Program-made: the position numbers and the translations under genes
Shown: positions 2,420 to 34,651 of the stretch, piece after piece
How positions within the stretch are numbered: position 1 is the first letter of the stretch
Layout of the letters: each line of letters starts with the position of its first letter
Notes under the pieces: generated by a model
Seen by the model: the letters and a program-made list of their open reading frames with translations, nothing else
Database searches by the model: none
What the model was told of the DNA's origin: nothing
NCBI RefSeq assembly: GCF_054482595.1
Contig: NZ_CM137008.1
DNA: 64,000 nt
Strand: one strand, 5' to 3'

Positions 2420-3700
2420 ATGAAATTACTTATTCTGGGCAACCACACTTGCGGCAACCGCGGCGACAGCGCCATCCTGCGCGGCTTACTTGATGCCATC
2501 AACATCCTCAATCCACACGCCGAAGTGGACGTGATGAGCCGCTATCCGGTCAGTTCTTCCTGGCTGCTCAACCGCCCGGTAATGGGCGATCCGCTGTTCC
2601 TGCAAATGAAACAACACAATAGCGCGGCGGGCGTTGTCGGGCGCGTTAAAAAAGTCCTCCGTCGCCGCTATCAACACCAGGTACTGCTCTCACGCGTCAC
2701 CGACACTGGCAAGCTGCGCAATATCGCCATCGCCCAGGGATTCACCGACTTCGTGCGCCTGCTGTCAGGTTACGACGCCATTATTCAGGTCGGCGGATCG
2801 TTTTTTGTCGATCTCTATGGCGTGCCGCAGTTTGAACATGCACTTTGCACGTTTATGGCGAAAAAGCTGCTGTTTATGATTGGTCACAGCGTCGGTCCCT
2901 TCCAGGATGAGCAATTTAACCAACTGGCGAACTATGTCTTTGGTCATTGCGACGCGCTGATCCTGCGCGAATCGGTCAGCCTCGATCTAATGAAACGCAG
3001 CAATATCACTACCGCAAAAGTGGAACATGGCGTTGATACCGCGTGGCTGGTCGATCACCACACCGAAGATTTCACCGCCAGCTATGCCGTCCAACACTGG
3101 CTGGACGTTGCCGCACAACAGAAAACGGTGGCAATTACCCTGCGCGAACTGGCACCGTTCGACAAACGTCTCGGCACCACTCAACAAGCGTATGAAAAAG
3201 CCTTTGCCGGGGTGGTCAATCGCATTCTCGATGAAGGGTATCAGGTGATTGCGCTCTCCACCTGTACGGGCATCGACAGCTATAACAAAGACGACCGCAT
3301 GGTGGCGCTCAATCTGCGCCAGCACATCAGCGATCCTGCCCGTTACCACGTAGTGATGGATGAATTCAACGATCTGGAAATGGGCAAAATTCTCGGTGCC
3401 TGTGAACTCACCGTCGGTACGCGCCTGCACTCTGCCATTATCTCGATGAATTTTGCCACTCCGGCAATTGCCATCAACTACGAACATAAATCCGCCGGGA
3501 TTATGCAGCAGCTGGGACTACCGGAGATGGCAATTGATATCCGTCATTTATTAGACGGCAGCCTGCAAGCGATGGTTGCGGATACCTTAGGCCAGCTTCC
3601 GGTGCTGAACGCTCGACTTAACGAAGCCGTCAGTCGCGAACGTCAGACGGGAATGCAGATGGTGCAATCTGTGCTTGAACGCATCGGGGAGGTGAAATGA
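2420..3700 (+). CDS. wcaK: Colanic acid biosynthesis pyruvyl transferase
   Basis: ORF 2339..3700; start reassigned to the internal ATG at 2420 (MKLLILGNHTCGNRGDSAIL), giving 426 aa; position in cluster. Confidence 0.85.
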   Translation: MKLLILGNHTCGNRGDSAILRGLLDAINILNPHAEVDVMSRYPVSSSWLLNRPVMGDPLFLQMKQHNSAAGVVGRVKKVLRRRYQHQVLLSRVTDTGKLRNIAIAQGFTDFVRLLSGYDAIIQVGGSFFVDLYGVPQFEHALCTFMAKKLLFMIGHSVGPFQDEQFNQLANYVFGHCDALILRESVSLDLMKRSNITTAKVEHGVDTAWLVDHHTEDFTASYAVQHWLDVAAQQKTVAITLRELAPFDKRLGTTQQAYEKAFAGVVNRILDEGYQVIALSTCTGIDSYNKDDRMVALNLRQHISDPARYHVVMDEFNDLEMGKILGACELTVGTRLHSAIISMNFATPAIAINYEHKSAGIMQQLGLPEMAIDIRHLLDGSLQAMVADTLGQLPVLNARLNEAVSRERQTGMQMVQSVLERIGEVK

Positions 3701-4917
3701 AGGTCGGCTTCTTTTTACTGAAATTTCCGCTGTCTTCGGAAACCTTCGTCCTCAATCAAATTACCGCGTTTATTGATATGGGCTTTGAGGTGGAGATTGT
3801 CGCGCTGCAAAAAGGCGACACCCAGAACACCCACGCGGCATGGACGAAATACAACCTTGCCGCAAGAACCCGTTGGTTACAGGACGAACCTACGGGCAAA
3901 GTGGCGAAGCTACGCCACCGTGCCAGCCAGACGTTACGAGGCATTCATCGTAAAAATACCTGGCAGGCGCTCAACCTCAAACGCTATGGCGCAGAGTCGC
4001 GGAATCTGATTTTGTCTGCCATTTGCGGCCAGGTCGCAACACCGTTTCGCGCCGATGTGTTCATCGCTCATTTTGGTCCAGCGGGGGTAACCGCAGCAAA
4101 ACTCCGCGAACTGGGTGTCATTCGCGGCAAAATTGCCACCATTTTCCACGGCATTGATATTTCCAGTCGGGAAGTGCTCAACCACTACACTCCCGAATAT
4201 CAGCAACTGTTTCGCCGTGGCGACCTGATGTTACCGATAAGCGATCTGTGGGCCGGAAGGCTGCAAAAAATGGGCTGCCCGAGGGAAAAAATCGCCGTAT
4301 CGCGCATGGGCGTAGATATGACGCGCTTTAGCCCGCGTCCCGTGAAAGCGCCCGCAACGCCGCTGGAGATTATTTCCGTCGCACGCTTAACCGAGAAAAA
4401 AGGCCTGCATGTGGCGATCGAAGCCTGCCGTCAGTTGAAAGAGCAGGGCGTGGCATTTCGCTATCGCATCCTCGGCATTGGCCCGTGGGAAAGACGCCTG
4501 CGTACCCTCATCGAACAATATCAACTCGAAGATGTGGTGGAGATGCCGGGCTTTAAACCGAGCCACGAAGTGAAAGCGATGCTCGACGACGCGGATGTTT
4601 TCTTGTTGCCATCGGTAACGGGTGCGGATGGCGATATGGAAGGTATTCCGGTGGCGCTAATGGAAGCGATGGCGGTCGGTATTCCGGTGGTTTCTACTCT
4701 GCATAGCGGAATACCGGAACTGGTGGAGGCCGATAAATCCGGCTGGCTGGTGCCTGAGAACGATGCTCGCGCACTGGCGCAACGACTGGCGGCGTTTAGC
4801 CAACTGGACACCGACGAATTGGCTCCGGTCGTCAAACGCGCGCGCGAAAAAGTCGAACACGATTTTAACCAGCAGGTGATTAACCGAGAACTCGCCAGCT
4901 TGCTGCAGGCTTTATAG
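3697..4917 (+). CDS. wcaL: Colanic acid glycosyltransferase (GT4 family)
   Basis: 406-aa ORF whose start overlaps the wcaK stop; GT-B-type C-terminal motif region ([20 protein letters not shown]); position in cluster. Confidence 0.85.
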
Positions 4918-4927
4918 AGGAGAACGT

Positions 4928-6322
4928 ATGCCATTTAAAAAACTCTCCCGACGCACCTTCCTGACGGCAAGCTCGGCGCTTGCCTTCCTCCATACCCCTT
5001 TCGCTCGCGCACTTCCTGCTCGACCAAGCGTTAATATCAACGATTACAATCCGCACGACTGGATCGCCTCATTTAAACAAGCTTTTAGTGAAGGGCAAAC
5101 GGTCGTCGTGCCTGCCGGATTGGTTTGTGACAATATCAACACCGGCATCTTCATTCCTGCAGGTAAAACGTTACACATCCTTGGAAGCCTGCGCGGCAAC
5201 GGCAAAGGGCGATTTGTTTTACAGGACGGCAGCCAGGTGACAGGGGAGGAGGGCGGCAGTATGCATAACATCACCCTGGATGTGCGCGGCTCTGACTGCA
5301 CCATCAAAGGGCTGGCGATGAGCGGCTTTGGCCCGGTAACGCAGATTTATATCGGCGGCAAAAACAAACGGGTCATGCGCAACCTGACCATCGATAACCT
5401 CACTGTCAGCCACGCTAATTACGCCATCTTACGCCAGGGATTTCATAACCAGATTATCGGTGCCAACATCACCAATTGTAAGTTCAGCGACTTACAGGGG
5501 GACGCTATTGAATGGAACGTGGCGATTAACGACAGTGATATTTTGATCTCCGACCATGTCATCGAGCGCATCAACTGTACTAACGACAAAATCAACTGGG
5601 GCATCGGCATAGGTCTTTCGGGTAGTACCTACGATAACAACTACCCGGAAGACCAGGCAGTGAAAAACTTTGTCGTGGCGAATATCACGGGATCGGATTG
5701 TCGGCAGTTGATCCATGTTGAAAATGGTAAACATTTTGTTATTCGTAATATCAAAGCCCGCAATATCACACCGGATTTCAGTAAGAAAGCAGGTATTGAT
5801 AACGCGACAGTCGCTATTTACGGTTGTGACAATTTCGTGATTGATAATATTGAAATGATTAATAGCGCCGGGATGTTAATCGGTTATGGGGTAATTAAAG
5901 GCAAATATCTCTCGATACCGCAAAATTTCCGAGTGAATAATATTCAACTGGATAATACCCACCTTGCTTACAAATTGCGCGGTATCCAAATCTCCGCCGG
6001 GAATGCTTTCTCCTTTGTGGCGCTGACTAACATTGAGATGAAGCGTGCCTCGCTGGAGCTTCACAATAAACCGCAACATCTTTTTATGCGAAATATCAAT
6101 GTGATGCAGGAATCCTCAGTTGGACCCGCATTGAGCATGAACTTCGACATGCGCAAAGACGTTCGCGGCGTCTTTATGGCGAAAAAAGAAACGCTGCTTT
6201 CACTCACGAATATTCATGCCGTGAATGAAAAAGGGCAAAGCACCGTCGATATCGACAGGATAAATCACCATATTGTTAATGTGGAAAAGATTAACTTTAA
6301 ATTGCCGGAACGGAGGGAGTAG
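4928..6322 (+). CDS. wcaM: Colanic acid biosynthesis protein WcaM (signal peptide, beta-helix-like)
   Basis: 464 aa with an N-terminal twin-arginine-like leader ([13 protein letters not shown]); last gene of the colanic-acid cluster by position. Confidence 0.8.
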
Positions 6323-6479
6323 ATTTGCGACCATTCATAAACTTACTGGATATAATGTTCTAAAAGATTATAATCCTTACGCTAACTGTTAAAGCTGGGG
6401 CTGGGCAGCATTGACTACTCAGGGAAGATACTCATCTTTATCTTGTGTTTCTTACGTAACAACCAGACTAAAGTGATTT

Positions 6480-7475
6480 ATGAACGATAACGTTTTGCTC
6501 ATAGGAGCTTCCGGATTCGTAGGAACCCGACTACTTGAAACGGCAATTGCTGACTTTAATATCAAGAACCTGGACAAACAGCAGAGCCACTTTTATCCAG
6601 AAATCACGCAGATTGGTGATGTTCGTGATCAACAGGCACTCGACCAGGCGTTAGCCGGTTTTGACACTGTTGTACTACTGGCAGCGGAACACCGCGATGA
6701 CGTCAGCCCTACTTCTCTCTATTATGATGTCAACGTTCAGGGTACCCGCAATGTGCTGGCGGCCATGGAAAAAAATGGCGTTAAAAATATCATCTTTACC
6801 AGTTCCGTTGCTGTTTATGGTTTGAACAAACACAACCCTGACGAAAACCATCCACACGATCCTTTCAACCACTACGGCAAAAGTAAGTGGCAGGCAGAGG
6901 AAGTGCTGCGTGAATGGTATAACAAAGCACCAACAGAACGTTCATTAACCATCATCCGTCCTACCGTTATCTTCGGTGAACGGAACCGCGGTAACGTCTA
7001 TAACTTGCTGAAACAGATCGCTGGCGGCAAGTTTATGATGGTGGGCGCAGGGACTAACTATAAGTCCATGGCTTATGTTGGAAACATTGTTGAGTTTATC
7101 AAGTACAAACTGAAGAATGTTGCCGCAGGTTATGAGGTTTATAACTACGTTGATAAGCCAGACCTGAACATGAACCAGTTGGTTGCTGAAGTTGAACAAA
7201 GCCTGAACAAAAAGATCCCTTCTATGCACTTGCCTTACCCACTAGGAATGCTGGGTGGATATTGTTTTGATATCCTGAGCAAAATTACGGGCAAAAAATA
7301 CGCTGTCAGCTCAGTGCGCGTGAAAAAATTCTGCGCAACAACACAGTTTGACGCAACGAAAGTGCATTCTTCAGGTTTTGTGGCACCGTATACGCTGTCG
7401 CAAGGTCTGGATCGAACTCTGCAGTATGAATTCGTTCATGCCAAAAAAGACGACATAACGTTTGTTTCTGAGTAA
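6480..7475 (+). CDS. gne: NAD-dependent epimerase, UDP-GlcNAc/GalNAc 4-epimerase-like (Gne family)
   Basis: 331 aa with an N-terminal Rossmann motif (LLIGASGFVGTRL) and a YxxxK active-site motif (YGKSK); lies between wcaM and galF, where gne is found in several E. coli serogroups. Confidence 0.65.
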   Translation: MNDNVLLIGASGFVGTRLLETAIADFNIKNLDKQQSHFYPEITQIGDVRDQQALDQALAGFDTVVLLAAEHRDDVSPTSLYYDVNVQGTRNVLAAMEKNGVKNIIFTSSVAVYGLNKHNPDENHPHDPFNHYGKSKWQAEEVLREWYNKAPTERSLTIIRPTVIFGERNRGNVYNLLKQIAGGKFMMVGAGTNYKSMAYVGNIVEFIKYKLKNVAAGYEVYNYVDKPDLNMNQLVAEVEQSLNKKIPSMHLPYPLGMLGGYCFDILSKITGKKYAVSSVRVKKFCATTQFDATKVHSSGFVAPYTLSQGLDRTLQYEFVHAKKDDITFVSE

Positions 7476-7717
7476 TGCAGACGAGTCAGAGAAAAAAGGA
7501 CCAGGTTGGACTACGATTATTCGGAAAGAGGTACTGATTAAATTATCAGTATGCGGAATTCCGAGTAATCCGAGTAACCCAGATGCTGATGGTGTGTAGT
7601 GTTATCCTAAGGTTTAAGCAAAGTTTTGCGGAACTAAGCTTTGGTATATAGCCATAACGTTTGGCTAACCTATGGCAATAATTTACGCACTATCAGCCAC
7701 TTAGAGGTAGGAAAAGA

Positions 7718-8611
7718 ATGACGAATTTAAAAGCAGTTATACCGGTAGCAGGTCTTGGGATGCATATGTTGCCTGCCACTAAGGCGATTCCCAAAGAGAT
7801 GCTACCGATCGTCGACAAGCCAATGATTCAGTACATTGTTGACGAGATTGTGGCTGCAGGGATCAAAGAAATCCTCCTGGTGACTCACGCGTCCAAGAAC
7901 GCGGTCGAAAACCACTTCGACACCTCTTATGAATTAGAATCTCTCCTTGAACAGCGCGTGAAGCGTCAACTGTTGGCGGAAGTGCAGTCTATCTGTCCGC
8001 CTGGCGTGACCATTATGAACGTGCGTCAGGGCGAACCTTTAGGTTTAGGCCACTCCATTTTATGTGCACGACCCGCCATTGGCGACAACCCATTTGTCGT
8101 GGTACTGCCAGACGTAGTGATCGACGACGCCAGCGCTGACCCGCTGCGCTACAACCTTGCTGCCATGATTGCGCGCTTCAATGAAACGGGCCGTAGCCAG
8201 GTGCTGGCAAAACGTATGCCGGGTGACCTCTCTGAATACTCTGTCATCCAGACCAAAGAACCGCTTGATCGTGAAGGTAAAGTCAGCCGCATTGTTGAAT
8301 TTATCGAAAAACCGGATCAGCCGCAGACGCTGGACTCAGACATCATGGCTGTTGGTCGCTATGTGCTTTCTGCCGATATTTGGCCGGAACTAGAACGTAC
8401 TCAGCCTGGTGCATGGGGACGTATTCAGCTGACTGATGCAATTGCTGAGCTGGCGAAAAAACAGTCCGTTGATGCCATGCTGATGACCGGCGACAGTTAC
8501 GACTGCGGTAAAAAAATGGGTTATATGCAGGCGTTTGTGAAGTATGGGCTTAGGAATTTAAAGGAAGGTGATAAGTTCAGGATGAGTGTAAAAAAATTGT
8601 TAGAAATCTAA
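7718..8611 (+). CDS. galF: UTP-glucose-1-phosphate uridylyltransferase paralog GalF
   Basis: 297 aa with a nucleotidyltransferase N-terminus ([35 protein letters not shown]); immediately precedes the O-antigen cluster. Confidence 0.9.
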
Positions 8612-8842
8612 CTCCGAACTATTAACGCGTTCCTTGGGCGATAGGGGACTTAATACGATTGTAATGGTTAATCGTGTTTCCCCTTTTTTAGATTGATTGG
8701 TAGTTGGAATGGAAATTTTATATTGAGCAAAATATGGGGAAAATATATTTTAGTTAGTTATTAAGAGTACAATCTGTTGAATACTTGTTTCGCTAAATAA
8801 TTGAGTTTTAGGTTTTTATTAAAATTTATAACTATTAATGAG

Positions 8843-8883
8843 CATAGTGCACTGGTAGCTATAGAGCCAGGGGCGGTAGCTTG
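8843..8883 (+). promoter_or_regulatory. JUMPstart element with ops (GGCGGTAG) antitermination site upstream of the O-antigen operon
   Basis: cactggtagctatagagccaggggcggtagcttg; ops core ggcggtag at 8872-8879, about 80 bp upstream of wzx; RfaH-dependent operons carry this element. Confidence 0.65.
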
Positions 8884-8960
8884 TTTAGTGTTAGGTATTC
8901 TGGTTTTAAAAGCATAAAACTCTCCAGTATTTTCATTGCATACATAATATTATTCATTAA

Positions 8961-10208
8961 ATGTCATTAAAAAAAAATGTTATATATCTAGTGTTGATGC
9001 AAGCGGTTAATTATATTGCTCCTCTTGTTTTAGTACCATATTTAACGCGAATCCTTGGAGTGGAAAAATATGGCGTTCTAGGTCTTGCTATTACGGTTAG
9101 CCAGTACTTAATTTTGTTGACGGATTTTGGTTTTAATTTTACTGCCAGTAGAAAAATAGCTCAATTTAAAGATAGTAAAGTCAGGGTTAGTCAAATATTT
9201 TGGACTATCATCTCAGCAAAATTTTTAATGATGATAGTATCATTCGGTTTAATTGTCCCTTTTGTTGTGTTTTCAGAAAAATTAAATCCCTTAAAATGGG
9301 AAATATTTTTAGTTTCGCTATCTGTAGTTGCGAGTGTGATTATTCCATCTTGGTTGTTTCAGGGGCTTGAAAAGGTTACAGTTTTTTCCGGCATCAATAT
9401 TTTTTCTAAGATTTTGATTGTGCCTCTTGTCTTTATTTTTGTGAAATCTAAGGAGGATTTACTGATTGCCTGCTTATTACAAGGTGGAGTGCAAGTATTT
9501 TCTGGAATAATATCCATATTGTATGTTAAGTATAATAAGATTATTTCATTTAAAGTTGTGAGGCCAAAATTAATCTTTATATATTTAAAAGAGTCTCTAT
9601 CAGTATTTTTAGGTAATTTATCTATTTCTTTATATACTCTCAGTACGCCCTTAGTTTTAGCTCTTATGGGGACAACGTATCAAGTTGGGCTTTATAGTGC
9701 CACTGATAGAATCAGAGGGGCTGCAATTGGTATCTTTATAGTTGTTGGATATGCAATTTTCCCCAGAGTAAGCTATTTGTTTAAAAAAAATCCCTTAGAA
9801 GCTAATGTTTTGCTTAAAAAAATAATATTTATCTTCTCGATTCTGGGATGTTTAGGTGGAGTACTTGTATATAGTATTGCTGATGAGATTGTTTTAGTTG
9901 CATTTGGTAATCAATATTTAGATTCTGCCATTCTTTTGAAAATAATGGCGCCTATGTTTTTACTCATTCCTCTTTCAATAATTATGGCAAACTACTTATT
10001 ATTGCCAAATGGTTTTAAAAAAGAGTATGCAAAAAATTCTGTGATAGTATGCTTATTGCATATGACATATGTTTTCCCTCTTTGTAAATACTATGGTGCA
10101 GTTGGCGGTAGTTATTCGATTCTTATTTCAGAGATAATAAGCTTTATTTTATTAATTTTTTGGACGATAAAAAATAATTTATTGAAGAAGGTTTTTTATG
10201 CAAGATAA
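8961..10208 (+). CDS. wzx: O-antigen flippase
   Basis: 415-aa highly hydrophobic polytopic protein; AT-rich codon usage typical of O-antigen clusters; first gene after JUMPstart. Confidence 0.7.
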   Translation: MSLKKNVIYLVLMQAVNYIAPLVLVPYLTRILGVEKYGVLGLAITVSQYLILLTDFGFNFTASRKIAQFKDSKVRVSQIFWTIISAKFLMMIVSFGLIVPFVVFSEKLNPLKWEIFLVSLSVVASVIIPSWLFQGLEKVTVFSGINIFSKILIVPLVFIFVKSKEDLLIACLLQGGVQVFSGIISILYVKYNKIISFKVVRPKLIFIYLKESLSVFLGNLSISLYTLSTPLVLALMGTTYQVGLYSATDRIRGAAIGIFIVVGYAIFPRVSYLFKKNPLEANVLLKKIIFIFSILGCLGGVLVYSIADEIVLVAFGNQYLDSAILLKIMAPMFLLIPLSIIMANYLLLPNGFKKEYAKNSVIVCLLHMTYVFPLCKYYGAVGGSYSILISEIISFILLIFWTIKNNLLKKVFYAR

Positions 10209-11199
10209 TAAAAGTATAAAACTAAGCGTTATAATACCATGTTGGAACTGTAGTAAATATATCACAAAAACATTGGATTCTATCAAATATTCATATTATA
10301 TGTCTAGAAAGCCAATTTTAGAGATTATTTTAGTGGATGATGGCTCTACAGACTTAACAAGCAAAATAATCAAAGCGTATGACTTCGGAACTCGAGCGGT
10401 TAATGTTAAATATCATTTTCAAAATAACGCCGGTCCTAGTAAGGCACGAAATCAAGGAATTAAATTAGCGCAAGGTAGGTATGTGACTTTCTTGGATTCG
10501 GATGATATATGGAGTCCAGATTACCTTAGAATCATAGAGTCTATAATGGACAAATATGATTCTGAAATTATTGAATTTAATGCCGTTAGGTTTATTGAAG
10601 AAAATGCCAATTTAAAAATTCATAATAATTATACATTAGTGGACGAGGAGTATCATGGTCCTATAAATGAACGTATTCTTTCTGAGGTTTTTATAAAAAG
10701 CGAGTGGTATGTTTGGGCTCGTGTTTACAAAAAAAAACTTTTGGAAGGAGAGTCCTTCAATGAAAATATTACACATCATGAAGATGCTGAATTTCTACCA
10801 CGGATTTATCTTACAGCTAAATCAATCAGCAGAATTACTTCCCAGTTAATTTATTATAGATTAACGCAGAATAGTATTACAACAAAACCAAAAATTAGTA
10901 GCATCAAAGATCTCACTTTAGTATGCGAATTGTATTATGAAAATATCAATGGGCCAAATGACAAATATTATAAGGCTGCAATGATCAACTGTCTCTGGGG
11001 TTTAAAAAGACTAATCCTTGATAAAGGAGAATTTAGTTATATAAAAAAAAGTAGAATATTATATTACTGCCATATTGCTAGAAATAGTTCACAACTTTTT
11101 AATATGTTAAGTTGGAAAAAAAGATTATTTGTTTATCTTCCTCGAACCTATATATTTTTAAATTCCCTTAAATATAAGCTGTCAAAACGTGGTGCATAA
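10198..11199 (+). CDS. Glycosyltransferase family 2
   Basis: 333 aa with N-terminal GT-A signature (LSVIIPCWNCSKYI ... LVDDGSTD ... DSDD). Confidence 0.7.
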   Translation: MQDNKSIKLSVIIPCWNCSKYITKTLDSIKYSYYMSRKPILEIILVDDGSTDLTSKIIKAYDFGTRAVNVKYHFQNNAGPSKARNQGIKLAQGRYVTFLDSDDIWSPDYLRIIESIMDKYDSEIIEFNAVRFIEENANLKIHNNYTLVDEEYHGPINERILSEVFIKSEWYVWARVYKKKLLEGESFNENITHHEDAEFLPRIYLTAKSISRITSQLIYYRLTQNSITTKPKISSIKDLTLVCELYYENINGPNDKYYKAAMINCLWGLKRLILDKGEFSYIKKSRILYYCHIARNSSQLFNMLSWKKRLFVYLPRTYIFLNSLKYKLSKRGA

Positions 11200-12131
11200 T
11201 GGAAATATCAATAGTAATTCCACTGTATAACAAAGAGAATTATATCAAGAGGACGTTGCTTTCAATAATTGATACTTTTGGGAGAGTCTATAACGAGAAA
11301 GAGTATGAAATAGTCATCGTGGATGATGGGTCAAAAGATAAAAGTGTAAGTGTAGTAGAAAGTATAAATAGTAATGTTGTAAAACTCTACAAACAAGAAA
11401 ATGGCGGTCCTTCAAAAGCAAGAAATAATGGTGTAAATTTCAGTGATGGAAAATATGTCATTTTTTGTGATGCTGATGATATTATTTTGCCAAATTATGG
11501 TGATTATATAAAATATTCCATTGATAATTATCCTGACCATGATGTATTTGTTGCATTTAGCCGTGTTTTAAGAAACAGTAAAGAAAATTATAGCATACCT
11601 CTTTTTGACCCCGTGGATGTTTCTATTGTTGATGATTTTTTCTATGAGTGGGATAAGAGAAAGTTTTTTAGTGCATCGTCAATTTGTATAAAAAAACATT
11701 TCTTTATACAAAATGACTTGTATTTTGATGAAACGATTTCATCAGGTGAAGATTTATTGATGTTTTATAAAGCTGCGATTAAAACTAAATATGTTGCCTA
11801 TAGTCAACCGGCAGTATTATATGATAAAACAGTAGATTCGCAGTTAAGTTCTAATCCTGATTTGAAAATTGGTGCACATACTTATTTTTTAATAAAAGTC
11901 TACAAAACAGAGAATTTATCAGTCAAAGATAAAACTGCAATAAATCGAATTATCGATAAACAAATATGCTTTGTTGCAGTGGATAATCTCTTACGTAAAA
12001 AGTATGCAAATTCGTTAAATATAGTATTGTTCCGCAAACGAATGCTTTTACAACCTAAATTAGCTATAAAATTAATTATAGCCAGTATTTCGTATAAACT
12101 TTTTACTAAAATATCTAGTCTACTAAGATGA
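11199..12131 (+). CDS. Glycosyltransferase family 2
   Basis: 310 aa with GT-A signature (ISIVIPLYNKENYI ... VDDGSKD ... CDADD). Confidence 0.7.
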   Translation: MEISIVIPLYNKENYIKRTLLSIIDTFGRVYNEKEYEIVIVDDGSKDKSVSVVESINSNVVKLYKQENGGPSKARNNGVNFSDGKYVIFCDADDIILPNYGDYIKYSIDNYPDHDVFVAFSRVLRNSKENYSIPLFDPVDVSIVDDFFYEWDKRKFFSASSICIKKHFFIQNDLYFDETISSGEDLLMFYKAAIKTKYVAYSQPAVLYDKTVDSQLSSNPDLKIGAHTYFLIKVYKTENLSVKDKTAINRIIDKQICFVAVDNLLRKKYANSLNIVLFRKRMLLQPKLAIKLIIASISYKLFTKISSLLR

Positions 12132-13228
12132 TCATAGAGAATAATAAAGTGAGTTCACATAGCTATTTATGGGTTCTTTTCCAATCCTTTATATTTTATT
12201 ACAAATTCATGCTCCAAAGTTGGGACGGTGATGAACAGATTGTAAATGTAATATCTATCATCTTAACCTTACTTCTTTTATGTGGTACGATTAGTGCTTT
12301 TATAATCTCAAATATTAAAGAGAAATGTATATTTTTAATAATTTTCATTTTTGTTGCCTTGAACATAATTATAGCAGATAACAAATCTGTCTTTTGGATG
12401 GTGACGGCGTTCACTTTCTTGATACTCTTTTCAACGTTAACCATTAAAAATAGAATTAGGATATTGGTTTTCTCTTTTATAATTGCATGGTGTTTCTTTT
12501 TACCACTACAAATATTTTTCTCCAATTCCTATACATATATTGATGATCGATATTTAAGATATACATTTGGATTTTTAAATCCTAATGGATTAGGGATGTT
12601 TCTATTACTGTTGCAGACACTTTTATATTATTGGATATGGACTTCAATAAAAGCAACAATAATCGTGAAGCAAATGATTACAATAATTTTGGGTGGATCT
12701 ATCATATGCATAATATTTTTAAGTGAATCAAGAACATATATATTACTATCCTTTTTATTACTGATTTTAACTGTAATATACGGATTTAAGAAATTTAAAT
12801 TCTCATCACGACTTCTATTTATATATTTACTGTTTGTTATGCTTTTACAATGGCTTTCTGTAAAAGGTTTTGAGAATTACCTCATATTTCAAGATATGAA
12901 CGCATATATGAGTGGGCGAGTCTGGTTTTCCTATAATTTACTAAGCCAAATGGGAGAACCGAAATTCTTTATTGGTAGTGATATTTCATTGTATCAACCG
13001 ATAGACTTCTTCTTTATATCACTATTATATAATAATGGGATACTGGCTTCGTTAATATTGTTATACTGTAACTATATCTTTCTAAAAAAGTTAGACAACT
13101 CTACGAAATATGAAAGTATATTAGCTTTTATATTTATTACAGTAAGTTTCACAGAAGCTGTATATAATATTCCTCTGTTGAATTTCTTCTTTTTGCTGTT
13201 ATATAAAAAGGAATTGAGGTTTTCATGA
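12128..13228 (+). CDS. wzy: O-antigen polymerase
   Basis: 366-aa very hydrophobic, low-complexity membrane protein with about 10 predicted TM segments and a larger loop; position in the O-antigen cluster. Confidence 0.6.
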   Translation: MIIENNKVSSHSYLWVLFQSFIFYYKFMLQSWDGDEQIVNVISIILTLLLLCGTISAFIISNIKEKCIFLIIFIFVALNIIIADNKSVFWMVTAFTFLILFSTLTIKNRIRILVFSFIIAWCFFLPLQIFFSNSYTYIDDRYLRYTFGFLNPNGLGMFLLLLQTLLYYWIWTSIKATIIVKQMITIILGGSIICIIFLSESRTYILLSFLLLILTVIYGFKKFKFSSRLLFIYLLFVMLLQWLSVKGFENYLIFQDMNAYMSGRVWFSYNLLSQMGEPKFFIGSDISLYQPIDFFFISLLYNNGILASLILLYCNYIFLKKLDNSTKYESILAFIFITVSFTEAVYNIPLLNFFFLLLYKKELRFS

Positions 13229-14244
13229 AAGTTGATGCAGTAATCTTATGGGTAGATGGTAATGATCCAAAATGGCAGGAAGAATACAATAAATATTGTA
13301 AGCCGGCCTCTCGAATTGAGAATGGTGTACAAAGATATAGAGATTGGGATACACTACGATATGTAATTCGTGGAATAGAATATAACCTTCCTTGGATTGA
13401 CAAAATACATTTTGTGACATGTGGTCAAAAGCCAAGTTGGATGGTTGGATATCATCCAAAACTCAATTTTGTACATCATAACGATATTTTTGAGAATGAT
13501 ACATTTTTACCCACATTTAATTCAAGTGCAATAGAGTTAAATCTGTCAAGGATAAAGGGATTAAGTGAGAGGTTTATATATTTTAATGATGATATGCTTG
13601 TGCTTAAAAACACTCCTCTTCAGAGGTTTTTTGTAAATGATTTACCGGTGGATTTTTTAATTGAAGCTTTCCCACGGCGTGGGTTATTGTATGAAAAAAT
13701 ACGTTCCAACTCAACTTGGGTTTCAATGATAAATAATTGCACTTCGCTCATAAATAGAGTGTATCACAAGAATAAATATATACAGGATAATCGTAATTTA
13801 TATTATAACATGAACTATGGACGACATGTCATTGCTAATGTACTGGCGTCCCCTTTTAAGCAGTTTTTGGCTTTTAAACACTATCATCATCCTCAAGCAT
13901 ATCTTAAAAAGACATTACAATCCGTTGAGCGTGAGTTCCCAGTGGAGTTTAACTTAACATGCAAATCTAGATTCCGAGAACATGATAATATCTCACAGGC
14001 GTTGTTTAGATATTACCAATTGGTAACTGGTAGTTTTTATCCGTGCTATTATAATGATCATGCCTGTGTTAATGTAGTAAATAAAAAATCTGCAAGCCAG
14101 TGTATTGAAGCTCTTCATCAAAAACGATTTGTGTGTATAAATGATGAGATTAATGACGACTTAGATGATAGTTCAATTTTAATAAATGATATAATTAAAG
14201 AGTTGGATTTGATTCTTCCAAATAAATCAAGTTTTGAGATCTAA
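13225..14244 (+). CDS. Stealth-family sugar-1-phosphate (hexose-phosphate) transferase
   Basis: N-terminal DAVILWVDGNDP matches Stealth conserved region 1; downstream LRYVIRG...PWIDKIHFVTCGQKP...LPTFNSSAIELNL...GLSERFIYFNDDM matches CR2. Confidence 0.6.
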   Translation: MKVDAVILWVDGNDPKWQEEYNKYCKPASRIENGVQRYRDWDTLRYVIRGIEYNLPWIDKIHFVTCGQKPSWMVGYHPKLNFVHHNDIFENDTFLPTFNSSAIELNLSRIKGLSERFIYFNDDMLVLKNTPLQRFFVNDLPVDFLIEAFPRRGLLYEKIRSNSTWVSMINNCTSLINRVYHKNKYIQDNRNLYYNMNYGRHVIANVLASPFKQFLAFKHYHHPQAYLKKTLQSVEREFPVEFNLTCKSRFREHDNISQALFRYYQLVTGSFYPCYYNDHACVNVVNKKSASQCIEALHQKRFVCINDEINDDLDDSSILINDIIKELDLILPNKSSFEI

Positions 14245-14250
14245 ATTAAT

Positions 14251-15069
14251 ATGAATTCGTTTGATGAGTTTAATGTGCTACTATCTCTTTATAAAAATGA
14301 GAGCCCCGATAATCTGGATGCGTGTTTTCAAAGCATAAGCACTCAATCTTTGAAAAGATTTAAAATAATACTTGTCATAGATGGTCCTATTTCTTCTGAG
14401 TTAAATGAGGTTGTCGGAAAGTGGAAGTCACTATTACCTATTAAAATTATCAATCTCGAACGTAATGTTGGCTTAGGTAATGCTTTAAATATAGGTTTGA
14501 AATATTGCAGTTGTGATTATGTGTTTCGTATGGATACAGATGATATTTGTCATCCGGATAGGTTTTCCATACAATTTAGTTATCTGAGGAAACACCCCGA
14601 TATTGATTTGCTTGGTGGACAGATTGTAGAATTCCATGAATGCATAGAGGAGCCTAACGGTATGCGGTTAGTACCTTCTAAATATGAGGAAATTCTTCAG
14701 TATTGTAAACTTAAAAACCCATTTAATCATATGACAGTTGTGTTTAAAAGAGAGAGTGTACTTAAGGTCGGTGGATATAAACATCATTTATATATGGAGG
14801 ATTATAATCTTTGGCTTCGTATGATATCAATTGGTTGCAAAGTGGAAAATTTAGATGATGTGATTGTTTTTGCCCGAACAGACGTGAATTCATTAATGAG
14901 ACGTAGAGGGTGGCAATATGTTAAAAGTGAATGGAAATTAGCACTGTTAAAAATAAAGTTAAGAATAAATAATCCTATTGTTTCTTTATCTGTTTTTATC
15001 CTCCGATCTATACCTCGATTATTACCTATTATGTTGATTCGTAGAATTTATGCCCACAACCGCAAGTGA
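14251..15069 (+). CDS. Glycosyltransferase (GT-A fold, GT2-like)
   Basis: 272 aa; N-terminal NVLLSLYKNE and DxD-like FRMDTDD motif; last gene before gnd. Confidence 0.55.
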   Translation: MNSFDEFNVLLSLYKNESPDNLDACFQSISTQSLKRFKIILVIDGPISSELNEVVGKWKSLLPIKIINLERNVGLGNALNIGLKYCSCDYVFRMDTDDICHPDRFSIQFSYLRKHPDIDLLGGQIVEFHECIEEPNGMRLVPSKYEEILQYCKLKNPFNHMTVVFKRESVLKVGGYKHHLYMEDYNLWLRMISIGCKVENLDDVIVFARTDVNSLMRRRGWQYVKSEWKLALLKIKLRINNPIVSLSVFILRSIPRLLPIMLIRRIYAHNRK

Positions 15070-15217
15070 ATTTTTTTAAGTCATATTGAGTAATTGAGTA
15101 ATAGTTTTCCTATGTAATCAAAATTAACTATCAGTTTTATTATTAGTTGGGTAATATCTCTCTATATCTCAACCAGTGCAGTCATTGCATGGTGAACACC
15201 CCTGACAGGAGTAAACA

Positions 15218-16624
15218 ATGTCAAAGCAACAGATTGGCGTCGTCGGTATGGCAGTGATGGGGCGCAACCTTGCGCTCAACATCGAAAGCCGTGGTTATAC
15301 CGTCTCTATTTTCAACCGTTCCCGTGAAAAGACGGAAGAAGTGATTGCCGAAAATCCAGGCAAAAAACTGGTTCCTTACTATACGGTGAAAGAGTTTGTT
15401 GAATCTCTGGAAACGCCTCGTCGCATCCTGTTAATGGTGAAAGCAGGTGCAGGCACGGATGCTGCTATTGATTCCCTCAAGCCATACCTCGATAAAGGTG
15501 ACATCATCATTGATGGTGGTAATACTTTCTTCCAGGACACCATTCGTCGTAACCGTGAACTTTCTGCCGAAGGCTTTAACTTCATTGGTACCGGTGTTTC
15601 CGGTGGTGAAGAAGGCGCGCTGAAAGGGCCTTCCATTATGCCTGGTGGCCAGAAAGAAGCCTATGAACTGGTTGCACCGATCCTCACCAAAATCGCCGCA
15701 GTGGCTGAAGACGGTGAGCCATGCGTTACCTATATTGGTGCCGATGGAGCAGGTCACTATGTGAAGATGGTTCACAACGGTATTGAATACGGCGATATGC
15801 AGCTGATTGCTGAAGCCTATTCTCTGCTTAAAGGTGGCCTGAATCTTTCCAACGAAGAACTGGCGCAGACGTTTACCGAGTGGAATAACGGTGAACTGAG
15901 CAGCTACCTGATCGACATCACCAAAGATATCTTCACCAAAAAAGATGAAGACGGTAACTACCTGGTTGATGTGATTCTGGATGAAGCAGCAAACAAAGGT
16001 ACGGGCAAATGGACCAGCCAGAGTGCGCTGGATCTCGGCGAACCGTTGTCGCTGATTACCGAGTCTGTGTTTGCTCGTTATATCTCTTCTCTGAAAGATC
16101 AGCGTGTTGCCGCATCTAAAGTTCTCTCTGGCCCGCAAGCACAGCCAGCAGGCGACAAGGCTGAGTTCATCGAAAAAGTTCGTCGTGCGCTGTATCTGGG
16201 CAAAATCGTTTCTTACGCCCAGGGCTTCTCTCAGCTGCGTGCTGCGTCTGAAGAGTACAACTGGGATCTGAACTACGGCGAAATCGCGAAGATTTTCCGT
16301 GCTGGTTGCATCATCCGTGCGCAGTTCCTGCAGAAAATCACCGATGCATACGCCGAAAATCCGCAGATCGCTAACCTGCTGCTGGCTCCGTACTTCAAGC
16401 AAATTGCCGATGACTACCAGCAGGCGCTGCGCGATGTCGTCGCTTATGCGGTACAGAACGGTATCCCGGTTCCGACCTTCGCCGCTGCGGTTGCCTATTA
16501 TGACAGCTACCGCGCCGCAGTTCTGCCTGCGAACCTGATCCAGGCACAGCGTGACTATTTCGGTGCGCATACTTATAAGCGCATTGATAAAGAAGGTGTG
16601 TTCCATACCGAATGGTTGGATTAA
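15218..16624 (+). CDS. gnd: 6-phosphogluconate dehydrogenase, decarboxylating
   Basis: 468 aa; NADP-binding N-terminus ([16 protein letters not shown]) and 6PGDH signature region; conserved position downstream of the O-antigen cluster. Confidence 0.95.
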
Positions 16625-16650
16625 TCTGATCTAACCAACAATAAATTTAG

Positions 16651-16679
16651 GCCCGGCGTATATTGCGCCGGGCTTTTTG
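16651..16679 (+). terminator. Rho-independent terminator-like hairpin after gnd (or left-end hairpin of the IS200-like element)
   Basis: ggcccggcg-tatatt-gcgccgggc followed by ttttt. Confidence 0.45.
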
Positions 16680-17390
16680 TGCACAGAAAACCCCCAGCTA
16701 GGCTGGGGGTTCCGGAAAGCTATCAGCTTTGAGCCAGTTATTAAAACCCCTTTTGATTTGTTAAAACACCTTGCGGTCTGGCAACTGCAAGTGTCAAACA
16801 AGAAATCAAAAGGGGGTCCCAATGGGGAACGAAAAGAGCTTAGCGCACACCCGATGGAACTGTAAATATCACATAGTTTTTGCGCCAAAATACTGAAGAC
16901 AAGTGTTCTACAGAGAGAAACGTAGAGCAATAGGCAGTATTTTGAGAAAGCTGTGTGAGTGGAAAAGCGTACGGATTCTTGAAACTGAATGCTGTGCAGA
17001 TCATATCCATATGCTTGTGGAGAGCCCGCCCAAAATGAGCGTATCCGGCTTTATGGGATATCTGAAAGGGAAAAGCAGTCTGATGCTTTACGAGCAGTTT
17101 GATGATTTGAAATTCAAATACAGGAACAGGGAGTTCTGGTGCAGAGGGTACTACGTCGATACGGTGGGTAAGAACACGGCGAAGATACAGGATTACATAA
17201 AGCACCAGCTTGAAGAGGATAAAATGGGAGAGCAGTTATCGATTCCCTATCCGGGCAGCCCGTTTACGGGCCGTAAGTAACGAAGTTGGATGCAAATGTC
17301 AGATCGTGTGCGCCTGTTAGGGCGCGGCTGGTAAGAGAGCCTTATAGGCGCATTTGAAAAACCTCCGGCTATGCCGGAGGATATTTATTT
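16680..17390 (+). mobile_element. IS200-like insertion sequence (IS200/IS605 family), about 710 bp, ends approximate
   Basis: Encodes an IS200-type TnpA; the gnd-ugd spacer is about 958 bp, roughly 710 bp longer than the approximately 250-bp spacer recalled for K-12; hairpins near both ends (aacccccagc-tag-gctgggggtt at about 16689-16711; cctccggc-tat-gccggagg at about 17361-17379). Boundaries uncertain by about 40 bp. Confidence 0.7.
16822..17280 (+). pseudogene. tnpA: IS200 transposase TnpA (HuH Y1 family) with in-frame TGA at codon 25
   Basis: Translation from ATG 16822 gives MGNEKSLAHTRWNCKYHIVFAPKY then TGA (16894-16896), then RQVFYREKRRAIGSILRKLCEW...HIHML... in the same frame to 17280. 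Canonical IS200 TnpA has Arg at this position, consistent with CGA to TGA. Confidence 0.7.
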
Positions 17391-17573
17391 TTGCCAATTA
17401 TCTTATAGACTAAATTTCACTGCTTAATATTAACTTAATAAATATCAGCTATTCTTATAAAGAAAATCTGAATTGTTTTTCGTTGCGTTGACCATCTGAC
17501 AACGTAGCGTTAAAACTTTTAGCTCTTATCAGGATGCTAAAAACATCATGATTCACAGTTAAGTTAATTCTGA

Positions 17574-18749
<1,176 letters not shown>

Positions 18750-18895: not shown

Positions 18896-19876
18896 ATGAG
18901 AGTAGAAAATAATAATGTTTCTGGGCAAAACCATGACCAGGAACAGATTGATTTGATTGATTTACTGGTGCAGTTGTGGCGTGGCAAGATGACAATTATC
19001 ATCTCTGTCATTGTTGCTATTGCCCTGGCTATTGGGTATTTGGCGGTAGCGAAGGAGAAATGGACGTCAACAGCAATTATCACTCAGCCTGACGTGGGGC
19101 AAATTGCTGGCTATAACAATGCCATGAATGTTATCTATGGTCAGGCTGCACCTAAAGTGCCGGATTTACAGGAGGCGTTAATTGGTCGCTTCAGTTCTGC
19201 CTTCTCTGCATTAGCAGAAACGCTGGATAATCAGAAAGAACCAGAAAAACTTACCATCGAACCTTCTGTAAAGAACCAGCAATTACCATTGACTGTTTCT
19301 TATGTTGGGCAAACTGCAGAGGACGCACAAATGAAATTGGCCCAATACATTCAGCAAGTTGATGATAAAGTAAATCAAGAGCTAGAAAAGGATCTCAAGG
19401 ACAACCTTGCTTTGGGACGGAAAAACTTGCAGGACTCTTTAAGAACTCAGGAAGTGGTTGCGCAGGAGCAGAAAGATCTGCGTATCCGTCAGATTCAGGA
19501 AGCGTTGCAGTATGCGAATCAGGCGCAGGTGACAAAACCGCAGATTCAACAGACTGGCGAAGATATCACACAAGATACGTTGTTCCTTTTGGGGAGCGAA
19601 GCGCTGGAGTCGATGATTAAGCATGAGGCAACTCGTCCGTTGGTGTTTTCGCCAGACTACTATCAGACTCGTCAAAACCTGCTGGATATCGAAAACTTAA
19701 AGGTTGACGATCTTGATATTCATGCTTACCGTTATGTGATGAAACCGACGTTACCTATTCGTCGCGATAGCCCGAAAAAGGCAATTACCTTGATTCTGGC
19801 GGTGCTGCTGGGCGGCATGGTTGGCGCGGGGATTGTGTTGGGGCGTAATGCTCTGCGTAATTACAACTCGAAGTAA
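18896..19876 (+). CDS. wzzB: O-antigen chain-length determinant (polysaccharide co-polymerase)
   Basis: ORF 18839..19876; start reassigned to MRVENNNVSGQNHD (326 aa). Two TM segments flank a coiled-coil periplasmic domain; conserved position between ugd and hisI. Confidence 0.88.
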   Translation: MRVENNNVSGQNHDQEQIDLIDLLVQLWRGKMTIIISVIVAIALAIGYLAVAKEKWTSTAIITQPDVGQIAGYNNAMNVIYGQAAPKVPDLQEALIGRFSSAFSALAETLDNQKEPEKLTIEPSVKNQQLPLTVSYVGQTAEDAQMKLAQYIQQVDDKVNQELEKDLKDNLALGRKNLQDSLRTQEVVAQEQKDLRIRQIQEALQYANQAQVTKPQIQQTGEDITQDTLFLLGSEALESMIKHEATRPLVFSPDYYQTRQNLLDIENLKVDDLDIHAYRYVMKPTLPIRRDSPKKAITLILAVLLGGMVGAGIVLGRNALRNYNSK

Positions 19877-30136: not shown

Positions 30137-31495
30137 ATGTCGCATAACGTTACTCCAAACACCTCTCGCGTGGAATTGCGTAAAACGCTTACGTTAGTTC
30201 CGGTTGTAATGATGGGTCTTGCCTATATGCAGCCGATGACGCTGTTTGATACATTTGGTATCGTTTCAGGCCTCACGGATGGTCATGTGCCGACAGCCTA
30301 TGCGTTCGCATTGATTGCGATCCTGTTTACGGCTCTGAGCTACGGGAAGCTGGTTCGCCGCTATCCTTCTGCTGGCTCTGCATACACTTACGCCCAGAAA
30401 TCCATTAGCCCGACTGTCGGCTTTATGGTGGGTTGGTCTTCTCTGCTCGACTATCTGTTCGCGCCGATGATCAACATTCTGCTGGCGAAAATCTATTTTG
30501 AAGCTCTGGTGCCTTCCATCCCATCGTGGATGTTTGTGGTGGCGCTGGTGGCCTTTATGACCGCCTTTAACCTGCGTAGTCTGAAATCCGTAGCGAACTT
30601 CAACACTGTAATCGTCGTGTTGCAGGTAGTGCTGATCGCGGTGATTCTGGGCATGGTTGTTTATGGCGTATTTGAAGGTGAAGGCGCGGGTACGCTGGCG
30701 AGCACTCGTCCGTTCTGGTCTGGCGATGCGCATGTTATCCCGATGATTACCGGGGCGACAATCCTGTGCTTCTCCTTTACCGGCTTTGACGGCATCAGCA
30801 ACCTGTCGGAAGAAACCAAAGATGCAGAGCGCGTGATCCCGCGTGCGATTTTCCTGACCGCGCTGATTGGCGGCATGATCTTCATCTTTGCAACTTACTT
30901 CCTGCAGCTGTACTTCCCGGATATCTCTCGCTTTAAAGATCCGGATGCGTCACAGCCTGAAATCATGCTGTACGTTGCGGGTAAAGCGTTCCAGGTTGGC
31001 GCGCTGATCTTCTCCACCATTACCGTACTGGCGTCCGGTATGGCGGCGCATGCAGGCGTAGCGCGTCTGATGTACGTAATGGGGCGTGACGGTGTGTTCC
31101 CGAAAAGCTTCTTCGGTTATGTACACCCGAAATGGCGTACTCCGGCGATGAACATCATCCTGGTTGGCGCGATTGCCCTGCTGGCAATCAACTTCGACCT
31201 GGTAATGGCTACGGCGCTGATTAACTTTGGTGCGTTGGTGGCGTTCACCTTCGTTAACCTGTCGGTTATCTCGCAGTTCTGGATCCGTGAGAAGCGTAAC
31301 AAGACGCTGAAAGATCACTTCCAGTATCTGTTCCTGCCGATGTGTGGTGCGCTGACCGTTGGTGCGCTGTGGGTTAACCTGGAAGAAAGCTCAATGGTTC
31401 TGGGTCTGATCTGGGCTGCTATCGGTCTGATTTACCTGGCTTGCGTCACCAAGAGCTTCCGTAACCCGGTTCCGCAGTACGAAGACGTAGCATAA
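30137..31495 (+). CDS. plaP: Putrescine importer (APC superfamily amino-acid/polyamine permease)
   Basis: 452 aa from [16 protein letters not shown]; 12-TM APC-type permease. Confidence 0.88.
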
Positions 31496-31673
31496 TCATC
31501 TTTTCTAATAATCAACCGGAGTCGAATGAATATTTGGCTCCGGTTTTTTTATTCTTTTTTATCGAAATCCTCATTAATAACCATTTGTTCTAATTTAGAG
31601 AATTTGGTTATTGGTCTGCATTCCACCAGTCATGAATAATTTCCTCATTAACATTCATCTGGTTAATTAATTT

Positions 31674-32732
31674 ATGTTTTCAATGATATTAAGCGGGCTA
31701 ATTTGTGGTGCTCTGCTGGGATTTGTCATGCAGCGTGGGCGTTTTTGCCTGACAGGTGGTTTTCGCGATATGTATATCGCGAAAAATAATCGCATGTTTT
31801 ACGCCCTGCTGATTGCAATTTCGGTACAAAGCGTGGGGGTTTTTGCGTTAATTCAGGCGGGCCTACTGACTTACGAAGCCGGGGCGTTCCCGTGGCTTGG
31901 TACTGTTATAGGTGGGTATCTTTTCGGGCTGGGAATTGTTCTGGCGGGTGGATGTGCCACCGGGACCTGGTATCGCGCGGGTGAGGGATTGATCGGCAGT
32001 TGGATCGCGCTTTTCACTTATATGGTGATGAGTGCGGTGATGCGTTCTCCACACGCCAGTGGTTTAAATCAAACCTTGCAGCACTACACTACTGAACATA
32101 ACTCTATTGCTGATACTTTTAATTTGTCTGTGTGGCCGTTGGTTGCCGTTTTGCTGGTGATAACGCTCTGGGTGGTGATGAAAGAGTTGAAGAAGCCAAA
32201 ACTCAAAGTCGCGACCTTACCGCCGCGCCGAACCGGGATCGCTCATATTCTGTTTGAAAAACGCTGGCATCCCTTTGTCACTGCTGTACTCATCGGTTTG
32301 ATTGCGCTTTTAGCCTGGCCCCTGAGTGAAGCAACCGGACGCATGTTTGGGTTAGGAATCACTTCCCCAACGGCCAATATTCTGCAATTTCTGGTCGCGG
32401 GTGACGTGAAATACATTAACTGGGGCGTTTTCCTGGTGTTAGGGATCTTCGTGGGGTCATTTATTGCAGCCAAAGGGAGCCGTGAGTTCCGCGTTCGCGC
32501 AGCTGATGCACAAACAACATTACGTAGCGGGTTAGGTGGTGTACTGATGGGCTTCGGTGCCAGTATTGCAGGTGGTTGCTCTATCGGTAATGGACTGGTT
32601 ATGACTGCAATGATGACCTGGCAGGGCTGGGTTGGCCTTGTATTTATGATTCTCGGTGTCTGGACTGCGTCCTGGCTTGTGTATGTTCGACCGCAGCGTA
32701 AGGCGCGACTGGCGACTGCTGCGGCAAATTAA
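31674..32732 (+). CDS. yeeE: Thiosulfate transporter (YeeE/YedE family)
   Basis: 352-aa polytopic membrane protein with duplicated Cys-containing GGCATG/GGCSIG motifs. Confidence 0.88.
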   Translation: MFSMILSGLICGALLGFVMQRGRFCLTGGFRDMYIAKNNRMFYALLIAISVQSVGVFALIQAGLLTYEAGAFPWLGTVIGGYLFGLGIVLAGGCATGTWYRAGEGLIGSWIALFTYMVMSAVMRSPHASGLNQTLQHYTTEHNSIADTFNLSVWPLVAVLLVITLWVVMKELKKPKLKVATLPPRRTGIAHILFEKRWHPFVTAVLIGLIALLAWPLSEATGRMFGLGITSPTANILQFLVAGDVKYINWGVFLVLGIFVGSFIAAKGSREFRVRAADAQTTLRSGLGGVLMGFGASIAGGCSIGNGLVMTAMMTWQGWVGLVFMILGVWTASWLVYVRPQRKARLATAAAN

Positions 32733-32745
32733 GTAAGGTGTAAAG

Positions 32746-32973: not shown

Positions 32974-33015
32974 CCCAACATTGTCCTCCGCCGTATCAGC
33001 GGCGGAGGCTTCAAA

Positions 33016-34443: not shown

Positions 34444-34651
34444 TAGGTTAAATCCGTTATTTCTGCTGTCTGCCAGAGTATCAAATATCACCGTGCTAAT
34501 CAGCTTTAGCGCCACAATTTGGCAGCGAGTGGCAACAGATCATGTCAGATAAAAATGAGAGGGTAGTCACATTTTCTTGCACTTTATTCCAGCCAGTTCA
34601 TAAGTATTTCCGTAAAAAGAACAGCTATTTGAAACTCCTGAGGGTTTGCTG

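Follow-up and report, generated by a model that had tools for sequence, protein, structure and literature searches.

Stealth-family capsule polymerases are processive enzymes that operate in ATP-binding cassette (ABC) transporter capsule systems, and they are larger than the 339-residue Stealth protein considered here, which is encoded in a six-gene block of a 64,000-nucleotide stretch of contig NZ_CM137008.1 (RefSeq assembly GCF_054482595.1), called the window below. The family, which includes for example the capsule polymerases of Neisseria meningitidis serogroups A and X (PMC9388126), has in common with the window protein a CR1-CR4 core and, it is predicted, a chemistry in which hexose-1-phosphate is taken from a uridine diphosphate (UDP)-sugar and uridine monophosphate (UMP) is released (family description in PMC9388126). 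Its members with solved structures that are closest to the window protein, Mycobacterium tuberculosis CpsY (8j2n) and vertebrate GNPTAB (7s6n, 7sj2), act on a glucan and on the N-glycan mannose of lysosomal enzymes, respectively, and large insertions and regulatory domains set GNPTAB apart. According to the structure papers on these two proteins, activity was cut or abolished by mutation of CpsY E305, N322, D324 and R419, and of GNPTAB E389, D407, D408, H956 and R986.

In Escherichia coli, only six serogroups (O84, O152, O160, O172, O173 and O181) have two monosaccharides of the repeat joined by a phosphodiester (PMC9912281). The O160 O-polysaccharide was published as 'phosphate-containing' (Perepelov et al., 2015, as cited in PMC7685785), and both the O160 gene cluster and its phosphate-containing polysaccharide are already known from that year, with RefSeq labels on these genes. 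Serogroup O181 (strain 2015C-3905) offers a second comparison, since it has, like O160, a Wzx/Wzy O-antigen cluster between galF and gnd with one Stealth gene, and its polysaccharide contains alpha-D-Glcp-(1->P-4)-L-QuiNAc (QuiNAc, N-acetylquinovosamine), with the diester in the main chain (PMC4380953). Unlike O160, the O181 system has L-QuiNAc synthesis genes, retaining glycosyltransferases of family 4 (GT4), no gnu gene and a start on N-acetylglucosamine (GlcNAc).

When set beside these systems, the block at 8961-15069 of the window is very probably the gene cluster by which E. coli serogroup O160 makes its O-antigen in a Wzx/Wzy-dependent way. A listing of the open reading frames (ORFs) of the window shows this segment to be wholly occupied by six ORFs on the same strand, and four of their five junctions are overlaps of 1-11 nt while the last is a 6-nt gap, an arrangement that fits one translationally coupled operon. 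The guanine-plus-cytosine (GC) content of the block is 0.28-0.33, lower than that of the upstream colanic-acid genes (~0.53) and of gnd on the downstream side (0.50), and the gene order wcaM-gnu-galF-[six genes]-gnd-ugd-wzzB-hisIE places it at the galF-gnd location with gnu upstream of galF. An earlier, sequence-only reading of this DNA had described an AT-rich block of wzx, two family 2 glycosyltransferase (GT2) genes, wzy, a Stealth gene and one more glycosyltransferase gene, without dedicated nucleotide-sugar synthesis genes; the six genes are present where it placed them, and neither an NCBIfam scan nor the collinear annotation of strain NCTC11023 revealed a nucleotide-sugar synthesis gene within the block.

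The serogroup assignment rests on two kinds of reference data. When the 6109-bp block was used as a megablast query against 5,426 complete E. coli genomes, there were 14 full-length matches at 99.7-100% identity, all of them annotated with an 'O160 family O-antigen flippase' and an 'O160 family O-antigen polymerase', plus a fifteenth genome with the cluster, in which an inserted IS1-family element limits the match, at 99.8% identity, to 73% of the block. ISApl1 is found in wzx in two of the 14 full-length matches, so three of the 15 O160-cluster genomes are disrupted by insertion sequence (IS) elements. In addition, O160-specific wzx primers with a 655-bp product (PMC7403468, supplement) bind the window at 9071-9091 and 9706-9725 with zero mismatches, and in-silico polymerase chain reaction (PCR) returned the published 655 bp; the O181 locus (595 bp) and the O174 locus (317 bp), used as controls, were typed correctly. 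The labelled genome matches and the primer amplicon therefore allow the serogroup to be named, and the strain from which the window derives can be typed as O160. The earlier statement that the serogroup could not be named from sequence alone thus gives way once reference data are brought in, and the comparison of wzx and wzy with serogroup references that had been proposed as a check led to O160, a serogroup with a polysaccharide published as phosphate-containing.

Strain NCTC11023 (NZ_LS483297.1) illustrates how closely the window follows other O160 loci. Between galF and gnd, this strain has the six genes of the window in unchanged order, is 99.7-100% identical to the window in nucleotide sequence gene by gene, and gives the O160 PCR amplicon as the window does. 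The Wzy, Stealth and Gnu proteins and the second and third glycosyltransferases are identical between the two, whose Wzx proteins differ at two residues, as do their first glycosyltransferases. No literature was found on NCTC11023 or on the name of an O160 type strain.

The protein on which the predicted chemistry of this cluster depends was examined by profile and by structural alignment. The Stealth set of Pfam (PF17101, PF11380, PF17102 and PF17103) matches the 339-residue product in order, with CR1 at residues 1-24 (8.4e-11), CR2 at 37-138 (1.2e-38), CR3 at 221-262 (4e-8) and CR4 at 299-338 (0.0081), so a protein first recognized by its CR1 (DAVILWVDGNDP, residues 4-15) and CR2 motifs is now matched by all four Stealth profiles. 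No membrane segment is predicted, and the closest solved relatives are CpsY (8j2n, 1.4e-30) and GNPTAB (7s6n, 2.1e-27). In the alignments, E104 of the window protein pairs with CpsY E305 and GNPTAB E389; N121-D122-D123, which include the Mg-binding aspartate, pair with CpsY N322-D323-D324 and GNPTAB N406-D407-D408; H221 pairs with GNPTAB H956; and R251 pairs with CpsY R419 and GNPTAB R986, the residue that holds the transferred phosphate. All of the catalytic residues mapped from the two relatives are conserved in the O160 protein, including those that bind metal and phosphate, and the profile matches taken with this conserved active site therefore place it in the Stealth family. By blastn, all 15 O160-cluster genomes carry this ORF intact at 99.9-100% identity, and in 14 of them the identity is 100%.

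These properties suggest that the Stealth protein would make the sugar-phosphate-sugar diester of O160, because its gene is the sole one in the block other than wzx, wzy and the GT2 genes, is conserved in the 15 genomes, keeps its position in a diverged cluster, and has a counterpart in O181 (41% identical at the protein level) that likewise accompanies a diester. The diverged cluster is that of another enterobacterium (GCA_965119215.1; CBCPKK010000001.1, 1407-11472), which is fully syntenic (gnu-galF-wzx-GT2-GT2-wzy-Stealth-GT2-gnd) and has a GC content of 0.30; its six cluster proteins are 47-60% identical to those of O160 and its housekeeping proteins 83-92% identical to those of E. coli, and this cluster and that of O160 are probably old orthologues. 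That a Stealth gene here implies a phosphodiester-containing O-unit, as the sequence-only reading had proposed, agrees with the published description of O160 as phosphate-containing (PMC7685785) and with its place among the six diester serogroups, and to that extent the proposal is sound, if not new. Its further wording, a sugar-1-phosphate substituent, holds for the phosphate but is perhaps too narrow in picturing a pendant group, since reviews describe a bridge between two sugars. The only matches of a blastn search with the O160 and O181 Stealth genes were in O160, in O181, in a single type without assignment and in three plasmids; O84, O152, O172 and O173 were not found, and these may be absent from the collection, may be too divergent in DNA or may use another enzyme.

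The epimerase encoded upstream of galF bears on which sugar starts the unit. One review places gnu just upstream of galF in O160, gives the unit one GlcNAc and one N-acetylgalactosamine (GalNAc), and deduces that GalNAc is the initiating sugar because of this gnu gene (PMC7685785). The window protein and WP_000999466.1 of NCTC11023 are 100% identical, and the Prokaryotic Genome Annotation Pipeline (PGAP) names the latter N-acetyl-alpha-D-glucosaminyl-diphospho-undecaprenol 4-epimerase (Gnu). Taken from annotation and review, the current view would be that GalNAc arises by lipid-linked epimerization through Gnu and not by the supply of UDP-GalNAc through Gne. The gne-like gene of the earlier reading is thus correctly positioned, while its identification as a Gne that supplies UDP-GalNAc is at odds with the Gnu annotation; the expectation that GalNAc forms part of the repeat unit is in keeping with what the same review says.

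A biosynthetic pathway can be proposed from this gene content. WecA, encoded elsewhere, would make undecaprenyl-diphosphate (Und-PP)-linked GlcNAc, which Gnu would epimerize to Und-PP-GalNAc, the initiating sugar according to the O160 deduction in PMC7685785. Three cytoplasmic family 2 glycosyltransferases would then add common sugars from the housekeeping UDP-sugar pools, and since GT2 enzymes invert configuration, beta linkages are expected. The soluble Stealth enzyme would move one hexose-1-phosphate from UDP-hexose to a hydroxyl of the growing lipid-linked unit, with release of UMP, and, as has been proposed for GNPTAB, the beta-phosphate may be attacked in a single step that depends on Mg2+/Mn2+; because the C1-O-P bond would be untouched, the glycosyl phosphate should remain alpha, as in the donor. 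With the initiating sugar, the four transfers would give a five-residue unit, which Wzx would flip and Wzy polymerize, with WzzB setting chain length and WaaL ligating the chain to lipid A-core. Transcription would start at a promoter upstream of the JUMPstart/ops element and read through the operon with the help of RfaH.

Several other explanations of the locus can be weighed against this one. It is very improbable that the Stealth gene is a passenger or inactive, with the diester made by a GT2 protein or by the product of a gene that lies elsewhere. What GT2 enzymes transfer is the sugar and not a sugar phosphate, and the intact set of mapped catalytic residues, the near-invariance of the gene across the O160-cluster genomes, its retained position in the enterobacterial cluster, where protein identity has fallen to 47-60%, and the pairing of a Stealth gene with a diester in O181 all argue that the gene is functional; what can be said for a passenger is that the function is read here from sequence, and that no literature was found pairing a Stealth gene with O84, O152, O172, O173 or O181. 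Most characterized bacterial Stealth enzymes are capsule polymerases, and a related glycosyltransferase is found in a group 1 capsule-type locus of strain LZYWN_4, so the block might be thought to encode a capsule (K antigen) or another exopolysaccharide instead of the O-antigen of lipopolysaccharide (LPS). The chance of this is slight indeed, as a place between galF and gnd, a JUMPstart element and a wzzB gene close by are typical of O-antigen loci, and wzx and wzy are the genes used for typing O160; a capsule locus was rejected because the block is without wza, wzb, wzc and wzi export genes. A more serious competitor, though still an improbable one, is that the Stealth product forms a pendant side-branch sugar-1-phosphate and not a main-chain residue. 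The sequence does not discriminate between main-chain and branch positions, and over half of E. coli O-units are branched according to PMC7685785, but the monosaccharides of the six serogroups are described as 'linked together through phosphodiester bridges' (PMC9912281) and the O181 diester lies in the main chain (PMC4380953), observations with which a branch in O160 is still compatible.

It is unlikely, but less so than a passenger Stealth gene, that the upstream epimerase is a Gne that interconverts UDP-GlcNAc and UDP-GalNAc, in which case GlcNAc would initiate the unit and GalNAc would be an internal residue added by a GT2 enzyme. The protein is a GalE-like member of the short-chain dehydrogenase/reductase (SDR) superfamily by its NCBIfam matches, has matches to UDP-glucose 4-epimerases, and UDP-linked and Und-PP-linked substrates are indistinguishable by sequence alone, but its identity to a protein that PGAP names as an Und-PP-GlcNAc 4-epimerase favors Gnu. 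The preferred reading, in which Gnu makes the initiating GalNAc and the Stealth enzyme forms a phosphodiester bridge, has points to be set against it as well. The substrate of Gnu-type epimerases, lipid-linked or UDP-linked, is debated; the CR4 match of the Stealth protein is weak (E = 0.0081); Wzy has neither a Pfam nor an NCBIfam profile match, which is common because Wzy proteins are highly divergent; the part given to the Stealth protein in forming the O160 diester is one that we infer; and the five-residue unit, the beta linkages and the alpha-glycosyl phosphate stand as predictions.

Table 1. Features of the O160 locus and its flanks in the window, with the basis of each assignment.
Feature	Position	Strand	Basis
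gnu, SDR-family 4-epimerase, 331 aa, annotated Und-PP-GlcNAc -> Und-PP-GalNAc	6480-7475	+	100% identity to WP_000999466.1 (NCTC11023)
galF, conserved 5' flank of O-antigen locus	7718-8611	+	TIGR01105, 681.5 bits versus curated cut-off of 659.2
JUMPstart element	8845-8883	+	ops core GGCGGTAG at 8872-8879, exact match; ~80 nt before wzx
wzx, O160 O-unit flippase, 415 aa	8961-10208	+	Pfam, hydrophobic segments, RefSeq label, primers
Glycosyltransferase family 2 number 1, 333 aa	10198-11199	+	PF00535, 5.4e-30; GT2-type NCBIfam matches
Glycosyltransferase family 2 number 2, 310 aa	11199-12131	+	PF00535, 2.8e-27; GT2-type NCBIfam matches
wzy, O160 O-antigen polymerase, 366 aa	12128-13228	+	RefSeq label; 100% identity to NCTC11023
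Stealth-family hexose-1-phosphate transferase (predicted), 339 aa	13225-14244	+	Pfam CR1-CR4; Protein Data Bank relatives
Glycosyltransferase family 2 number 3, 272 aa, EpsE/AmsE-like, last glycosyltransferase before gnd	14251-15069	+	PF00535, 3.4e-21
gnd, conserved 3' flank of O-antigen locus	15218-16624	+	annotated gndA in NCTC11023; 99.9% identity
wzzB, O-antigen chain-length regulator, outside O160-specific block	18899-19876	+	collinear NCTC11023 annotation

Wzx, which RefSeq names 'O160 family O-antigen flippase', matches the Pfam family Polysacc_synt (PF01943, MOP type) at 2.3e-41 and has ~12 hydrophobic segments; its NCBIfam matches are all sub-threshold, and the Stealth protein, like Wzy, has no NCBIfam match. 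For Wzy, which matches no Pfam or NCBIfam profile, there are 10-11 hydrophobic segments, RefSeq gives the name 'O160 family O-antigen polymerase', and the syntenic orthologue in the other enterobacterium is 47% identical. All three glycosyltransferases match PF00535 over the N-terminal nucleotide-sugar-binding domain (E-values in Table 1). The third also matches NF053739 (EpsE) at 8.6e-25 and is 47.5% identical to the last glycosyltransferase of the O174 cluster, which also has gnu upstream.

The flanks of the block provide information on its expression and on its movement between genomes. The JUMPstart/ops element that the sequence-only reading noted ahead of wzx is there, and it is the expected signal for RfaH-dependent antitermination of the operon; 33 of its 39 positions match the JUMPstart consensus, a figure that is a lead and not a comparison with a curated reference. 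The motif GGCGGTAGY is also matched exactly on the + strand at 10104-10112 (the 3' end of wzx) and at 19042-19050 (in wzzB), giving four in the window versus 0.73 expected, a number reached in 4 of 100 shuffles, and these two extra sites may be due to chance. Consensus scans for promoters and terminators were uninformative, with 40 promoter-like sites where chance would give 42, and a single terminator-like site, a weak one, within the Stealth gene.

Gene-by-gene comparison with NCTC11023 shows 99.7-100% identity from gnu through ugd, and lower values on both sides (~95% for wcaL/wcaM, 97% for hisIE and 86% for wzzB). From this drop in identity at the flanks, the O160 determinant moves as a ~12-kb block (roughly 6480-18749) that appears to comprise gnu, galF, the O160 genes, gnd, an IS200-family tnpA pseudogene and ugd; wzzB, being only 86% identical, lies outside the co-transferred segment. 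This pattern is the usual one of serotype exchange by recombination in the flanks. The tnpA remnant, an IS200/IS605-family sequence at 16903-17280 between gnd and ugd, is a pseudogene with an internal stop in collinear genomes and is conserved in the O160 block.

Other parts of the region vary among strains. In XH989 (NZ_CP102679.1) and XH987, the O160 cluster is 100% identical to that of the window, and an additional O9-family ABC-transporter O-antigen cluster, which is missing from the window, lies between wzzB and hisIE (XH989 locus 31000-46109); this insert contains manC, rfbK, wzm, wzt, wbdA to wbdC and a group II intron, so these genomes have two O-antigen loci each. On account of the insert, XH989 was rejected as the strain from which the window comes, despite its identical cluster. 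Farther downstream, from ~38500 to 64000, the window ceases to follow NCTC11023 and has a CP4-44-like island instead. As judged from strain WP4-S18-ESBL-08, this island has yeeS/yeeT, cbeA/cbtA toxin-antitoxin genes and an antirestriction protein gene, an operon for a dynamin-family protein, an RdcB-family protein and a patatin-like phospholipase, as well as IS100, an ISL3 pseudogene, and inovirus Gp2-like and zinc-ribbon genes.

Relatives of the O160 cluster are also found on plasmids. The small plasmid pCUWW10B (NZ_CP182147.1; locus 3616-10125) has an IS26/IS1-flanked six-gene cluster of the Wzx/Wzy type related to that of O160, in the order GT2-GT-wzx-Wzy-like-Stealth-GT, and the same cluster occurs in NZ_CP196745.1, NZ_CP180599.1, Enterobacter cloacae AP022136.1 and Citrobacter NZ_CP056402.1. 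It is present in three strains of the E. coli collection and is 99.7% identical on the Enterobacter cloacae and Citrobacter plasmids. The plasmid cluster has the same gene set and the same wzy-Stealth-GT sub-order as O160, with identities to the O160 proteins of 56% for Stealth, 46% for the EpsE-like glycosyltransferase and 30% for the Wzy-like protein; unlike O160, it has a permuted gene order and a different terminal glycosyltransferase, and it is not present in the window. Two of its carriers, CUWW10 and FXCREC004, are among the three O160-cluster strains with an interrupted chromosomal cluster, by an IS1-family element in CUWW10 and by ISApl1 in wzx in FXCREC004, which may point to a plasmid cluster that takes the place of the chromosomal O-antigen or overrides it.

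These relatives raise a broader and more tentative proposal about the Stealth family. Whereas the capsule polymerases of the family are processive and larger, the O160 protein is a minimal core of 339 residues and would be expected to make one transfer per repeat, with an Und-PP-linked oligosaccharide as its acceptor. It might stand for a possible sub-class of minimal, non-polymerizing hexose-1-phosphate transferases that act in this way, and the wzy-Stealth-GT2 genes might at the same time form a mobile module, carried in Escherichia, Enterobacter and Citrobacter by small plasmids with flanking IS elements. Taken jointly, and together with the hint of plasmid override, these suggestions are speculative and more apt to be wrong than right.

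A further Stealth-like gene is found in E. coli 2017.06.04CC (NZ_AP025209.2, locus 5519-15702), in a galF-gnd O-antigen cluster without a serogroup label, where it is annotated 'hypothetical protein' and has 67.7% nucleotide identity to the O181 Stealth gene. This cluster also has synthesis genes of the L-N-acetylfucosamine (L-FucNAc)/QuiNAc type and an acyltransferase gene. It was negative by in-silico PCR with the primers for O172, O152, O84, O173, O181 and O160, and its assignment to O172 was dropped on account of these negative primers.

O160 has been reported among the STEC serogroups (STEC, Shiga toxin-producing E. coli) from cattle and beef (PMC7403468). As a discovery, the cluster in the window is of little significance, and its value lies in validating the way in which the Stealth gene was read. 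Glycosyl-phosphate links are acid-labile, a property relevant to the extraction or conjugation of the O160 antigen. Here a sugar-phosphate-sugar link was rightly predicted from the finding of a Stealth gene among O-antigen genes, and the rule can therefore be used on untyped clusters such as that of 2017.06.04CC, which by the same rule is a candidate for a further phosphodiester-containing O-antigen of E. coli.

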